A DNA stretch of 62,371 nt, filler included, from Kipferlia bialata (GCA_003568945.1; 3 parts of 3 records of this genome joined end to end with filler, not necessarily neighbours in it); one strand, 5' to 3'. Shown: positions 14,217 through 57,200, numbered from the whole stretch's first letter. The notes: generated by a model not told the origin, from the letters alone. Made by a program: numbers and translations.

Positions 14217-17200
14217 TCAGCATCCGAACCTTGGCATGAGTACCAGTCCCTCAGGTGTAGACACCACAAGACATGTATGACTATATGCCTTATGGTCACA
14301 AGGCAGGGTGAGTACGGTACAGTCCACACCACCTATCGGTACACAGTGGGTATCGATGGGTCTTTGGGCCGGGTCACCCCCCGCCTCTGCCTCTACCTCC
14401 GCCTCCTTTGTTGTCTCCACCCCCCCATACACCCTGTTCAGTATATGCCGTGGGGTCAGACTAGAGACTAGACAGGTGCCCACCCTGTGAGACGGGTCTC
14501 TCTCCCTCTGTCTCTGCCTCAGAGCTCTACCATTACCAACTAACACTCCAGTGTCGGTCAGTCGAGGGGGTAGTACCCTGGCTCCTGCCCGTGGAGAGTC
14601 CTCTCTCTCTCTCTCTCCCTCTGTCAGAAGAGCATCCAGCCTATCTAGCTCTGAGTCACCCTCAGTGGCATTGGTCATGTCAACATCAACAGGGTCAGCA
14701 TCCCTAACACTATCCTCAGCTTCCTCTATGTGGCTGGGCTTGACCCTCTTCAAGGCACGCACTGTCTGCAGCACAATGGCACTCTGGGGGGTCAGGGTAT
14801 GTATATATATACATGTATATAAATGCATATATATGTTTAGAAGTACCAACGGGCAAATAGTATACCATTCACACACAAGCCTATGATTCACTAACAAGCA
14901 TTCAATGAGACCATACAACTGTAACTACAACCATACCTGCAGATCCCCTGTCAGTGTACTGGGTGTGCCCTGGGAGGCAGTCTCCACACCACACCCAGAC
15001 AGCATCCTAGTGGGTGGGTATCGGTGTATATAGATATGGGTAATACTCTTACGGCAGGGGAGAGGACTGGTTTATATACGGAAAGACTCCCACTACTCTG
15101 AAGTGATCTTCCTGCCGACCCATACCTCACCACAGCCTCAGGCGTGTGTCCCCCCACCAGTGTGTCCCTCACCCCATCGGTCAGAGTGGCGGCAGTGGAC
15201 CTGGGGTGACATATATATATACATTCATAGGAACTGGCAATGAGGGGTATATAAGTGTCACATAAAGACGTGTATACTGTGTATCAGTCCATCGGTCAGG
15301 GAGGCGGCAGTGGACCTAAGTGTTAGTGGAACTGACTATGGGTGATGTATGTCTTACGGATAGAATGTGTACTGTAGTGTCCGCGTACCTAGCCTTGAGG
15401 AGGAATGTCCTCCCGGGTGGTGTCTTCAAGTCATGGTCAAGGGCTGTATGCAGCAGGGTACGCATGGGACCAGTCACACCCACAGGCACCCTAGGGAGTA
15501 TTGGCACGCAGGTCACTCTGGCTGAGTCCACGACACACACAGTATGGGGGGTCAGGGCTAGGTACCGGCCAGGACCAGGTCTCTGGGTGAGAGACAGTCT
15601 GGGTCCTATCAGCACCAGACTCTGACTGACTAGGGAATCTGTTGGATCGGTGCCGCCCATCCTGTGTGGGGTAGGGTTAGGGGTGTCACACCTGGCTGTC
15701 CGGTGCATCCATATGTCACAGACATCCCCCCCCTCTGCATGGTGTGTCAGGAGTACACAGTCCCCAGTAGCAGTGGAGGCATAGTCCAACAGGGTACAGT
15801 GGTTGAGAGATGGGGTGGCAGTTGGTACGTAGTGCGACACACGCAGTCTGGGGTATGTGGAGGAAGGCTCACTGCTGACCACGTTGCGTCTCACACCCAT
15901 ACCCACTCCCCCTGCCCTCCCCTTAGCCTCTGAGGCCTGATGCATCTGCTCAGTCTCTATCACAGCCACCCCAACCTTGCCCCTGGTGTCATCAAACACC
16001 ACCCCACACACTGCAGCCCCCCCCTCTGTCTGTGTGTAGTATGGCCTGATACCCTTGACAATAGAGGGCAGGGACAGACAGTGGATGGCAGACCCGTCAC
16101 CCAGAGAGACCGTCCATAGGCACCCATCGACTAGCACTACCACACACTCACACCCACGGGAGGTGGGGTGAGGGGGGATGTATACTATACCCTGTAGATC
16201 ACCAGGTGCCCCACTATCCCTGCCTTGCCTACCCCTCCTACCCATACCCATACCCATACCCATGCTCATAGAGACACCTGGGGTGGGAGAGTTACGCGGT
16301 TGCAATGGGAAATATATAGTTATGTATATATATAATGACGTTCACTCATTGACATGAGTGTGCAACTGCAAGAGAGAGGATGTCATACACTAACCTTTTC
16401 GCTTCTTCCTAGGCACCTCTACCCTCCAGAGACCCTTCTTGGCAGATGCATCCAGCAGCATCAGAAGGTCAGGCTGGGCAGGGGGGGGACGCCCACTATC
16501 GGGTGCCACTGGTTCAGTCGCACCCACCCTCAGTCCCATGAGCACCTTGACTCCCTCGGGGGGTGTGTCTAGCAGGTCAGGGTCACCGCAGTGGGAGGGG
16601 TCGGAGAGAGAGCCCCCCGAGACTATCGAGACGTGGGATATCTCTCGAGACGGGAGGGAGAGGTGCATGAAGGGTGGGTGGGTGTAGCCGAGGGAGGGCG
16701 GGACAGAGAGAGGGTAAGTGTAGCTGAGCAGGGCTGTGAGGTTCTGTGTCCCAAACAGACTGAGCCCGTGGCCTGTGCTGTCAACACCTGCCACTACCCC
16801 ATACCCAGACTGGACAGACCGGTAGGGCAGCCCGGCAGTACCCTCAGGCCGCATTCCGGGTGTGAGGGAGGGGGAGAGGGGGAGGGGGGAGAGAGAGAGT
16901 ATTGAGGTAAGAAACACGGGGAAGCCAGAAGTATGAGGGGGTAAGAGTAGTTCCTGGGCGGGGAGGAGGAGGGTGAGAGAGAGAGAGAGCTGAGACACAC
17001 TGGCATGTGGGGAGGGGGGTACAAGTAGTGTCTGCATATGGAGTAGAACCTATATATATAGGGATAGGTAGTACCGGAGTGGTGCACATGGGAGAGAGGG
17101 GAGGAAGAGGCAGAGCATATATATATGTATTAGTACTATACCTGAGTGGTGCCGCACATGCCTGCTGTGACATTGTCACAGCCAGCGGGTGTCTGCGTGC

Positions 17201-17342
17201 CCCGCCTGACCCCTGTGTCCCATGCATCTGACAGGCCGTGAGGTATGCAGACAGAGAGGGGACACCCCCAGGGCAGGGAGGGGGGGACATACAGGCACAC
17301 TGGGATGGACAGGACAGGCCTGCACAGTATCCTAGTGTCCAA
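14217..17342 (-). CDS. Multi-exon hypothetical protein
   Basis: Long GC-rich ORF segments (16390-17037, 15316-16305, 14217-14918) separated by AT-rich GT-AG introns with CCCCAG acceptors. No family recognised. Confidence 0.55.
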
Positions 17343-54012: not shown

Positions 54013-54214
54013 CTGGGGTGAGAGGGTAATAGAGAGAGAGAGAGAGAGAGAGAGAGTAAGAGATACAAATAGGAGGGGGGGGGGGGGGGGGGGGGTTACG
54101 GGGGGGGGGGGGGTTTCTCCCCCCCCCCCCCCCCCCCCCCCTCCATACTGAAATATACATCACCGTTTCCACACTTGTCTTCTGCCACTCATATACCCTA
54201 TATGTCCCTTCATC

Positions 54215-57200
54215 ATGATGCTTCGGTGCTCACAGAGTATATGTGCTGTGCACTTCCTTACCAGTTACTCTCCATTACCCTAACCACAGTGACTAGGGAG
54301 CACTATATCCCTGTCCCCGGTGTCCCTTCCACTGCCCCCTCCGTCTCTAGACAGCCCCCCTCCACGGTCACCCTGTTTGGAGAGGTGTCCAACATTCCCA
54401 TTGCCAGTAAGGGTGTAGGTGTAGCGGGAGGTGCAGCCTCCCAGGCCCAACAGCTAGTCCACATGGCCCAGACTGATATGGCCATGTCTGATGTGAGTAT
54501 GGCCAGGGTGGTGGAGGCATCAACATCCCTCTCTCCCCCATCGGTCGCTGCATCTAACGCAGTGTCCCCAGCTGACTCTGTGTCCACCAAACACCCAACC
54601 CCGCCCTCCCAGGTGTCTGATAGTGGTGTGTCAACCACCCTGAACCTACACACTGTGTCACAGGGAGAGACTGCAGCAGTGACAGGGACAGAGACTAAGG
54701 TGAAGGTGAAGGGGAGAGGGAGAGGGAGACCCAGGAAGGCCAAGGGGGCTGGTGCTGAGTCTGCCCCCAAGCCCCGAGGCAGGCCCAGGGGGACACCCTC
54801 CCACACCACAATGTCGCTCAACAAGAGACTGGTGGTGCTGGAGGAGCAGGTGAGTATGAATATAGGTATATATTTATAGGTATATATTTGTGTAGTACTA
54901 TGTATATGTAAATGGTAATGTAGTAAGAGACTGGTGGTGCTGGAGGAGCAGGTGAGGAGGAGTGGTATATATGTATGTTCGTGTATAGTAATAGTGTGTT
55001 ATGTTTCTCTCACCCCCAGACCACCACCGCTGCCCCTCTCTCCATGGTGACTGAACTGACACGGAGGGTACAGCAGCTTGAGGCACAGGTGGGTAGTGGC
55101 CGTGTGCATCATTATGTCTAAGTATATATGCACTTATCTATTGTTCTAATGCCCCCTCACCCCAGTTCCAGTCCCTGAGTCAGACCGGTGCCACACAGAG
55201 ACAGGGGGGCATGGCATCTACCCCTGCTTCCATGGCCACAGCACCTATAGCCCCTGTGGCCCCACCTGTCCCTGTCCAGATACCCACTGGCAATGGACAC
55301 ACAAGACCAGCAGGTGGGGATGGAGGAGTGTAGTGTGGTAATAGCTAATGTCTAAGTTGGTCACACTTTTGGATGTCGGGCGTATGTATATTCCATGTGC
55401 ATTCCATCCATTGATACAGTATACTAACCCTGCCTCTGACCCCAGGTACCACCATGTCCTATGGACCATCGGAAGGTATGTGTGCCATTGCTATTCTGGA
55501 TGTTATCATATATGATGTATATGGTGTATATGGTGTATATGGTGTATATGATGTATATGCTGTATTCTTGGCAATTATACCTTGTGCATAGTGTGACTCC
55601 TTCATGTACTCAATCCCCTGCCCACCCCTTAGGCTCAGCTGCATTCACCAGAACCAAGGTGGAGATGACTCACCCGGTGGTCAGGTGGTTTCCTATGCAT
55701 ATATCCGAATACTCCGAGTGCCTTTGTTACTGTTGCAGTAGGGGTTCTCACAGATAACCAACTCACTCTCAGGCTGAACGGATCTGTCGCCCCCGTTCCT
55801 ACCCCGGCGCCACAAATGCAGTACCAAGGTATACATGAGACATGATTATATATATCTGAATCTATATGAGTATGAATTCATCTTCTACCACACCATGTCC
55901 CGCCAACCCCAGTACGTCATGGGGCCTGGACTGCCCAGGAGGCACAGAGGGCCACGGTGCTGCTGAAGTAAGGATACTAGTAAGGATATACTAGTATATG
56001 AAGCTGCAGGAGTCGTCTCAGTTCATCAGTCGCTACAGTGATTGTTGAGGGTTTCTCTCCCCCTTGGGTTTCTCTGACTACCCTGTCGTCCATCATGATA
56101 CTCTCTATACCCTGTTGTATGTATTGATCTAGTCCCTCACACACAAGTCAGAGGAAGGAGGAGATTGCAGCCTTGAAGAGAGAGCTCCAGACATACAGGG
56201 GACAGGGTGCACAAGGCGGAATGGTACGTCATTACACCTTGGAATTTGTGCCTCCCCCTCCCACTAGTCTCATCCTCACTCTCAGGCCCCTGACGCTATG
56301 CTGAGGGAGCAGCAGAGACAGGTGGGTGTGAGTCTGATAGTTATGGCACTCTATGTTTGGCAATGTCTGTCTACCTTCCCTCCCCTCACCCCTCAGATGA
56401 CCAAGGCCCTGAGGGACAAGGACAGGGAGAGAGAGAGGATGGTCAGGTCAGCTGTTGCTGCAGCAGAGAAGGAGGTGGGGCGTCTTCTATTCTCATACTG
56501 TATTCAGTTTCAATTTGTTTTGCTTACTGTCTCTTTCTACATGTGTGATATTGTTTCTCTCTATAGTGTCAATTGACTGTGTGGTCTGAATATAACATAT
56601 CCACTCTAACGTCCCAGGCTGCTGTGGTGATTGAGAGTGGCGAGGCTGAGATTGCCCGGCTCAAGAACGAGGTGCTGGAGGAGGTGTGTGCCTTGGTTCC
56701 ATCTTGAAATTTGTGTCATATATATATATATATATGCTTAGTCTGACTCCTGTCCTAAACCCCCCAGGCCAAGTACGCATGGCGCAGAGAGGCCGACCTG
56801 ACCATCACCCAGGGCACCCTGCGTGCATTGTGTGCCACCCTGGTACCCTCAGATACTAAGGGGGCAGAGGAGGCACCCCCACCCACTGGGCCTGTGCAGG
56901 GTCCATCTGCCAAGAGGCCACCCTCCGTGGAGCATGTACCTGGGATGCCCGTGCCCTCCCTCAGTGCCGTGCCCAGTAACCATTTGGCCAGTCTCATCGA
57001 GGGCATGGAGGAGAGGGCAGAGTGGGGTATGGGGTGTATGTATATATGTATACTATGTATTGTCCACACATATATATGTATATATATATTGAATGAGGGC
57101 ATGGAGGAGAGGGCAGAATGGGGTGAGGACTCTGTTGTATTTATATCGATACACGTACATGTAAGTTTGGAATGGCTATGCCGAATCTTTCTCTCACCCT

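Follow-up and report, generated by a model that had tools for sequence, protein, structure and literature searches.

The stretch analysed here (the window) comprises 62,371 nucleotides of assembled DNA from Kipferlia bialata (GCA_003568945.1), a free-living fornicate for which 124,912 canonical introns have been reported (PMC5874029). It consists of three scaffolds of ~20.7 kb each, artificially linked through N spacers (20748-20847 and 41574-41673); features separated by a spacer are not neighbours. Two K. bialata proteins, P0005 (KIPB_002249) and P0006 (KIPB_002238), were 100% identical to exons of the window and mapped exactly onto it as 20 and 55 exons, respectively. Nine further gene segments with open frames are our own predictions, and our model of gene F is the same as P0007 and as the final 158 residues of P0009. 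The deposited models are gene predictions, not RNA proof. In the 165 exons and 153 introns scanned, we found partial copies of exon ends in the adjoining intron or flank, which are called echoes below. The echoes are a real feature of the assembly and carry a robust codon signal. All counts refer to this window alone and were obtained from the assembled sequence rather than from reads. Genes at 2.1-11.6 kb were left outside the gene models, and a diagonal repeat scan gave no qualifying repeat upstream of 15174.

Codon-blind local alignment of 330 exon ends with their own adjacent intron or flank yielded 53 echoes at 35 boundaries (Table 1). In a control, exon ends gave 7 matches in 1650 trials against the introns of other genes; therefore, one or two of the 53 echoes may be due to chance. 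A first diagonal scan had returned 50 local repeats, nearly all located at exon ends. Fifty-one echoes lay inside 30 of the 153 introns (approximately one in five), and the remaining two were downstream of a stop codon. Both boundary types were duplicated, with 27 intronic echoes on the donor side and 24 on the acceptor side, and GT or AG was kept in register in 44 of these 51. The distance from the nearest echo to the working end was 52-236 nt (median, 94). The exon-derived portion of an echo measured 14-56 nt (median, 29), and the median intron portion was 65 nt. A single echo was present at 23 of the 35 boundaries, and arrays reached four echoes (five units). In the array at 49088..49346, the outer units were 88% and the middle unit 62% alike. 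The median length was 252 nt for introns with an echo and 84 nt for those without, an approximately threefold difference that agrees with the intron growth proposed in an earlier reading made from the sequence alone (the sequence-only reading).

Forty of the 53 echoes clustered at 41.7-54 kb. Across most of 41700-54000 the GC content was as low as 0.40-0.46, and TA runs were abundant in introns; the frequency of TA was 0.16 per nt in echo introns compared with 0.11. It is possible that this region is a hot spot of breakage or exchange. Weaker echoes were seen by eye near 27840, 46400, 47815, 49640, and 53520, and were left uncounted as sub-threshold. The one near 47815 is a faint copy associated with a six-codon micro-exon of gene F (47858-47876, minus strand), which is present in P0009 and lies outside our model and counts. 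A perfect 49-nt duplicate (51974-52077) flanking a 6-N gap at 52023-52028 resembles an echo but was rejected as an artefact of scaffolding overlap. In the echo at 49346, six aligned positions, including two mismatches produced by a 6-nt deletion, were removed by hand before counting. Several echoes were taken as exons by our own gene finder; exon-end copies in introns mislead such programs.

Table 1. Echoes in the window and their main host genes. Syn/nonsyn, synonymous/non-synonymous differences from the working exon end.
Feature	Position	Strand	Working end	Syn/nonsyn	Remark
Gene A acceptor + exon-start echo	15289..15315	-	15200-15174	1/1	own gene prediction
CCCH zinc-finger gene B acceptor + exon-start echo	17928..17948	-	17865-17845	identical	
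Two exon-start echoes	21253-21286, 21159-21189	+	21369	0/1, 1/1	AG lost in the second
Exon-end + donor echo	21524..21563	+	21407-21446	2/0	
Exon-end echo	22502..22544	+	22385-22427	2/0	match ends 18 nt short of donor
Exon-end + donor echo	23353..23367	+	23301-23315	identical	
Acceptor + exon-start echo	24675..24703	+	24741-24769	identical	branch-point version differs
Exon-end + donor echo	24889..24920	+	24795-24826	1/0	
Acceptor + exon-start echo	25169..25190	+	25257-25278	1/0	potential 18-nt in-frame micro-exon
Exon-end + donor echo	25854..25876	+	25780-25802	1/2	
Three exon-start echoes	42236-42274, 42121-42138, 42050-42075	+	42327	2/0, 1/1, 1/2	
Exon-start echo	42572..42593	+	42649		AG lost; exon part identical
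Four exon-end echoes	42796-42830, 42899-42931, 42985-43006, 43093-43114	+	42735	1/3, 1.5/4.5, 1/2, 2/2	
Acceptor + exon-start echo	43217..43249	+	43327-43359 (aligned)	3/2	
Two echoes of gene E final codons + stop	44424-44464, 44540-44575	+		3/0, 2/0	no splice site
Exon-end + donor echo	46207..46220	-	46276-46263	identical	
Two exon-end echoes	46643-46608, 46481-46453	-	46696	3/2, 3/0	
Acceptor + exon-start echo	47061..47084	-	46978-46955	identical	
Exon-end + donor echo	47170..47207	-	47331-47294	2/2	
Acceptor + exon-start echo	47556..47588	-	47491-47459	2/0	
Two exon-end echoes	48840-48785, 48727-48675	-	48921	6/0, 7/0	one Val codon with three states
Three exon-start echoes	49127-49088, 49241-49212, 49346-49321	-	49011	1/1, 0/0, 1/0	6-nt deletion in the third
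Acceptor + exon-start echo	49544..49576	-	49483-49451	identical	holds longest exact repeat, 51 nt
Four exon-end echoes	49948-49902, 49840-49812, 49748-49720, 49662-49641	-	49996	3.5/3.5, 2/0, 2/0, 1/1	one Thr codon with three states
Two exon-end echoes	50230-50202, 50163-50141	-	50305	0/0, 2/1	
Two exon-start echoes	50643-50623, 50752-50731	-	50549	1/1, 0/0	
Two exon-start echoes	50970-50954, 51061-51037	-	50891	0/0, 2/1	three acceptor versions
Acceptor + exon-start echo	51293..51319	-	51234-51208	2.5/1.5	potential 24-nt in-frame micro-exon
Two exon-end echoes	51497-51484, 51423-51392	-	51572	0/1, 4/0	
Acceptor + exon-start echo	52118..52146	-	51910-51882	1/0	
Exon-end echo	52793..52825	-	52908-52876	1/4	AG-rich, weakest of all
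Acceptor + exon-start echo	53035..53051	-	52924-52908	identical	
Exon-end + donor echo	53626..53660	-	53750-53716	3.5/2.5	
Gene H (own model) exon-end + donor echo	54925..54951	+	54823-54849	identical	
Gene H2 (own model) exon-end + donor echo	57095..57122	+	56999-57026	1/0	
Host gene CD	20945..32494	+			deposited P0006 (KIPB_002238, partial), 55 exons
Host gene E	41693..44353	+			own model, 9 exons, open frame
Host gene F, 7 of its exons	46086..47730	-			KIPB_002248 = P0009
Host gene G	48555..54192	-			deposited P0005 (KIPB_002249), 20 exons, 23 echoes

Over 1552 aligned nt, echoes and working ends differed at 121 positions, of which 78 were synonymous and 43 were not; codon positions 1, 2, and 3 carried 19, 24, and 78 differences, respectively. 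Thirteen of the 53 echoes were identical to the exon, and one, at 42985-43006 (plus strand) in gene E, contained a stop codon. The synonymous share was 0.645, compared with 0.38-0.41 expected if only the working exon were constrained (P 6e-9 to 2e-7, with differences treated as independent). The ratio of the non-synonymous to the synonymous proportion of differences (pN/pS) was 0.17-0.19 (0.11-0.31 by bootstrap over boundaries), whereas at least 0.5 is expected under the same constraint. When each site-allele was counted once, 64 of 104 differences were synonymous (P 2.5e-5), and at the 26 boundaries with differences, synonymous changes led at 19 and trailed at 4. The signal was present in donor echoes alone, in acceptor echoes alone, and without gene E; it was weaker in gene E alone (share 0.515, P 0.02-0.05). 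The null was also simulated with the aligner unchanged, and six sets of mutation parameters were covered (transition bias of 1-4, AT bias, and doubled GC rate). The simulated means were 0.37-0.42 and the maximum was 0.545, so that none of 900 runs reached the observed share. Detection or mutation bias was therefore rejected as the cause.

Changes private to one echo, i.e., those for which the working exon and another echo agree, were synonymous in 17.5 and non-synonymous in 14.5 cases (26% expected to be synonymous, P 3e-4), and three states were found across copies at two codons. It is therefore apparent that the dead copies themselves carry a coding history; they were coding for much of the time since parting. 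The 36 distinct amino-acid changes were not clearly conservative (BLOSUM −0.39 vs −0.72, P 0.14). If the differences are allelic, silent diversity, taken as pS minus pN, would be ~15% uncorrected. The sequence-only reading had claimed that exon-end copies in introns diverge almost only at synonymous sites. The copies are real, and the pairs that it quoted were exact (21407-21446 and 21524-21563, 2 of 2 silent; 24795 and 24889, 1 of 1; 51572-51602 and 51392-51422, 4 of 4; 47459 and 47556, 2 of 2), but with 43 non-silent differences in the whole set the claim was overstated, and what stands is an excess beyond chance. The comparison with simulated neutral copies that it had called for came out, in this window, in favour of part of its interpretation: neutral decay together with constraint on the working exon cannot give the codon pattern, and the copies were once under protein-level selection.

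The adjoining intron sequences behaved differently from the exon-derived part. The exon part was 92% identical between echo and working end, whereas the acceptor flank (−20 to −3) was 49% identical to that of the working acceptor (37% in random pairs) and the donor flank (+3 to +12) was 54% identical (33% in random pairs). Echo flanks are thus related to the working flanks, yet far more diverged than the exon part, which agrees with a coding past of the copies; a tandem copy decayed by less than 4% would not show flanks so different. The branch-point motif was matched by 14 of 24 echo acceptors and 83 of 153 working acceptors, and an echo acceptor frequently represented a different but valid form of the branch point-AG motif. 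A unit of 111 nt at the end of gene E carried 3 silent changes in its last codons (~10 silent sites), compared with 2 changes in ~70 non-coding nt (Fisher P 0.013). This stop-codon repeat fits the import of a working end from another allele. Because echoes exist there, splice sites are not required, and the decisive feature is the place where conserved sequence gives way to unconserved sequence. Neither the introns nor the intergenic DNA of the window were found to contain a free-standing duplicate, and the 11 non-exonic repeats were echo spacers, splice motifs, simple repeats, and the gap artefact. Donors numbered 2 in 1569 nt of spacer behind acceptor echoes and 54 in 9604 nt of plain intron; no depletion is claimed, since the spacers are poor in G (0.10 vs 0.17).

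Several explanations of the codon signal were weighed. If tandem copies were swapped into the exon within one haplotype by unequal exchange, conversion, or deletion, with harmful changes purged, a minisatellite-like turnover would result. Such turnover, an idea of the sequence-only reading, would suit the arrays of up to five units, some of which are alike across the spacer as well, the rarity of non-silent changes close to the splice site, and the length instability and concerted evolution reported for 'mirage' clusters of duplicated exon-intron boundaries in amphioxus (PMC3087553). It should, however, homogenise spacers together with the exon part, whereas the flanks are only 49-54% alike, several identical echoes (50752, 50230, and 23353) have unrelated flanks, and most boundaries bear a single echo; a stop codon and amino-acid changes that are not clearly conservative also argue against purging. 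We therefore regard turnover as unlikely. Protein-level selection, which the sequence-only reading had placed in repeated exposure of the copies, is accordingly retained for the past, while present exposure is unneeded. Ordinary neutral duplication with constraint on the working exon alone is the least credible explanation: the 43 non-silent differences and 13 identical copies indicate that neutral decay and young copies exist, and third positions were somewhat GC-richer (0.66 vs 0.60 and 0.51), but the simulations fell short of the observed share under every setting, and third-position changes ran both ways (27 strong-to-weak, S>W, and 30 weak-to-strong, W>S), unlike those at first and second positions (20 S>W and 11 W>S).

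Splicing of the copies as micro-exons or alternative splice sites under present protein selection is very improbable. The retention of GT or AG, the in-frame G|GTR found within 90 nt in four acceptor echoes (e.g., 51319 and 25169), and the exon calls of our gene finder are in its favour, but in the 70 nt upstream of donor echoes a branch point-AG motif was present in only 2 of 27 cases, and no G|GTR followed 16 of 24 acceptor echoes. In addition, P0005, P0006, and P0009, although gene predictions, have no repeated peptides at the echo places, and two echoes sit downstream of a stop codon. The unusual splicing suggested by the sequence-only reading is hence unlikely for most copies. It is equally hard to credit that echoes are still used, either because the expressed genome copy regularly loses the spacer by recombination between echo and working end, comparable to the pointer repeats of ciliates, or because the repeats guide splicing; in both cases echo bases would enter the mRNA and remain subject to protein-level selection. 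If this were true, Kipferlia would be rearranging one intron in five, in its DNA or in its RNA. Tandem placement of the alleles of a heterozygous culture by the assembler is likewise a very doubtful explanation. Scaffolds are short and terminate at homopolymers, the gap-flanking 49-nt duplicate is an artefact, and the presence of a copy of gene F with an identical protein on a second contig points to two haplotypes in some places. Nevertheless, the copies begin or end mid-exon against AT-rich sequence, unlike any intact allele; up to five versions per boundary and three bases per site exceed two alleles; and the copies have decayed by a stop codon, deletions, and loss of GT or AG. The default top k of SPAdes is 55, and the longest exact repeat among echoes is shorter than one read. 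The published K. bialata draft, which may not be the assembly of this window, is described as built from paired Illumina reads at 130-150x with SPAdes defaults (PMC5874029).

We favour the reading that echoes once served as working exon ends in diverged alleles, were left stranded when haplotypes recombined or one was repaired from another, and are now probably decaying; we give it a probability of roughly 0.57. The diverged flanks and the amino-acid changes, not clearly conservative, fit such former alleles. Alleles would differ at ~15% of silent sites and much more within introns rich in simple repeats; strand exchange would therefore begin in exons only. A break near an exon end would be repaired on the template of the other allele, and the synthesis would copy that allele's exon end, splice site, and ~65 nt of intron before rejoining without trimming, leaving a new end, a foreign intron piece, and the old end. 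A tandem duplication on the sister strand followed by allelic replacement of the working end would give the same product, and the data do not separate these two routes. Selection would spare only half-exons with one splice site or copies behind a stop codon, and misalignment on an existing echo would add further copies, up to four. The last step, enlargement of the intron, corresponds to the threefold length difference described above. The silent differences would be inherited from the alleles, and the non-silent ones would mostly reflect later decay. The exchange partner may have been a sexual mate or a long-diverged homologue in the same cell; sex is not implied by the data. Dmc1 tolerates mismatches. 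Metamonads are reported to be without non-homologous end joining (NHEJ), and fornicates to have lost Rad51A and to keep two Dmc1 (PMC8516963). In hypervariable Schizophyllum commune, crossing-over is reported to be located in exons in crosses whose parents differ by 14% (PMC4209137), and in Drosophila, aborted synthesis-dependent strand annealing (SDSA) is reported to be completed by alternative end joining (PMC8951532).

A number of observations weigh against this stranded-allele reading. The allelic diversity was derived from the echoes themselves rather than from an aligned second allele, and the repair path is a proposal. A second copy of gene F, P0007 (KIPB_008241), is identical at 158 of 158 residues and lies on another contig of 6197 nt; it may be a separately assembled allele, which would support the reading, or a recent duplicate, which would not. 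P0005, P0006, and P0010, i.e., three of the four genes checked, each gave one protein on one contig, and two metagenome scans with P0007 and P0008 as queries found no relative. Arrays gave no clear order of age, as the far echo was more diverged in only 7 of 12. Non-silent changes climbed with distance from the splice site (0.016, 0.029, and 0.041 per nt), a trend that is also predicted by turnover with exposure and that ragged ends and the easier detection of long copies would give as well. Flank similarity did not track the divergence of the exon part (rho −0.04), and 14 of the 53 flanks were still clearly alike (P < 0.01), so that some copies are plain tandem duplicates. The 3' untranslated region (UTR) of the stop-codon repeat could itself be selectively conserved.

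If the stranded-allele reading is true, successive past alleles are preserved at many exon ends of a single assembly, and gene diversity and recombination between chromosomes can be read from one genome. It would point to a silent diversity of ~15% and prove exchange between homologues in a free-living fornicate. We found no population data for such a fornicate, and the literature found that names Kipferlia together with sex, meiosis, and recombination concerns Carpediemonas. The same reading would show how introns can grow in a lineage that lacks NHEJ and Rad51A and would suggest a reason for mirages in polymorphic marine species. It would also open the choice of splice sites to testing, because only ~90 nt separate the working acceptors and donors from intact decoys.

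With respect to the host genes, P0005 and P0007 gave no Pfam family and P0006 only a sub-threshold M16 match; therefore, host function does not explain the echo pattern. P0006 (20945-32494, plus strand) apparently fuses an Arg/Glu-rich N-terminal gene with a long gene that has a weak peptidase M16 C-domain match; our gene finder split these parts, but both regions had been set by hand. The deposited P0006 model contains a GC-AG intron at 25579. Gene B (17674-19155, minus strand) carries one echo, and Pfam, with zf-CCCH on the exon preceding the echo boundary, confirms only the zinc finger; we presume a likeness to the splicing factor U2AF35. Its junction near 18240-18181 is ambiguous. Gene E is, from a motif alone, presumably Kelch-like. 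A Kelch-like open frame at 33006-33896 (plus strand) is intronless and lower in GC than the neighbouring exons, and an EXS-family gene of 746 aa at 38605-40842 (minus strand) is an intronless single copy within an intron-rich genome.

The echoes were compared with known systems. In the Rogers model, introns are reportedly gained by intragenic tandem duplication, the new intron arising from a duplicated AG|GT inside an exon. Short duplications with splice signals alter gene structure in both cases, but in Kipferlia it is introns already present that lengthen, and what is copied is a half-exon: all 53 echoes carry their boundary and are located either within such an intron or downstream of a stop codon, and none of the 153 introns scanned was built from flanking exon copies. 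In minisatellites of the human F7 intron 7 type, the first unit spans the exon-intron boundary; further copies of exon end and donor follow in the intron, but the first donor is the only one to be used. Each of those minisatellites forms one homogeneous array, whereas in Kipferlia most spacers show little similarity and many boundaries are affected. The echoes did not have the form of duplicated or mutually exclusive exons, as an upstream acceptor motif accompanied 2 of 27 donor echoes and G|GTR accompanied 8 of 24 acceptor echoes, in frame in four. Nor did a mobile element or introner with target-site duplications account for them: neither the 20 largest repeat families nor the non-exonic repeats of the window included a common spacer family, and the copies, 14-56 nt long and diverged, are unlike short identical target-site duplications. 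Two ingredients of the proposed repair path have precedents, namely templated synthesis joined without annealing in Drosophila (PMC8951532) and, in S. commune, the restriction of exchange between diverged genomes to conserved exons (PMC4209137); the text available for these papers reports no exon-end copies in introns, and their application to Kipferlia is ours.

The closest likeness is to the amphioxus mirages of Adh3, the globins BflGb6 and BflGb9, troponin C, and PGBD5. These are described as tandem duplications that span one or the other exon-intron boundary and retain its splice signals; their number differs among haplotypes, and splicing is reported to be undisturbed (PMC3087553, PMC3902484). 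The layout, which the sequence-only reading took to be undescribed, had thus been published. As in mirages, either boundary was spanned (27 donor and 24 acceptor echoes), the unit of the 51 intronic echoes joined an exon part to adjacent intron, and many units (44) kept AG or GT. Mirage units of 10-72, 108, and 150-160 bp are reported, a size similar to the Kipferlia median of 94. The deposited gene predictions leave the echoes out. On the other hand, mirages are known from a handful of animal loci with units 81-100% alike and concerted evolution, whereas in this metamonad protist 30 of 153 introns are affected, mostly by single copies with a 92% identical exon part and flanks 49-54% alike. 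In a few arrays (49035-49346 and 44313-44534) the units were alike over their whole length, in most they were not. No publication on intronic boundary copies with synonymous change and unequal crossing was found in a search that left subscription papers and supplements outside, and the parts of the Kipferlia intron papers covered do not mention exon-end copies. A codon-position bias is not mentioned in the main text seen of the mirage papers (PMC3087553, PMC3902484); what Kipferlia adds is an excess of synonymous differences, measured here, and a pair of echoes at a stop codon. The echoes work like mirages and share their definition only in part; as far as the searches reach, the layout is known from mirages, and the protist lineage, the density, and the allelic signature are new.

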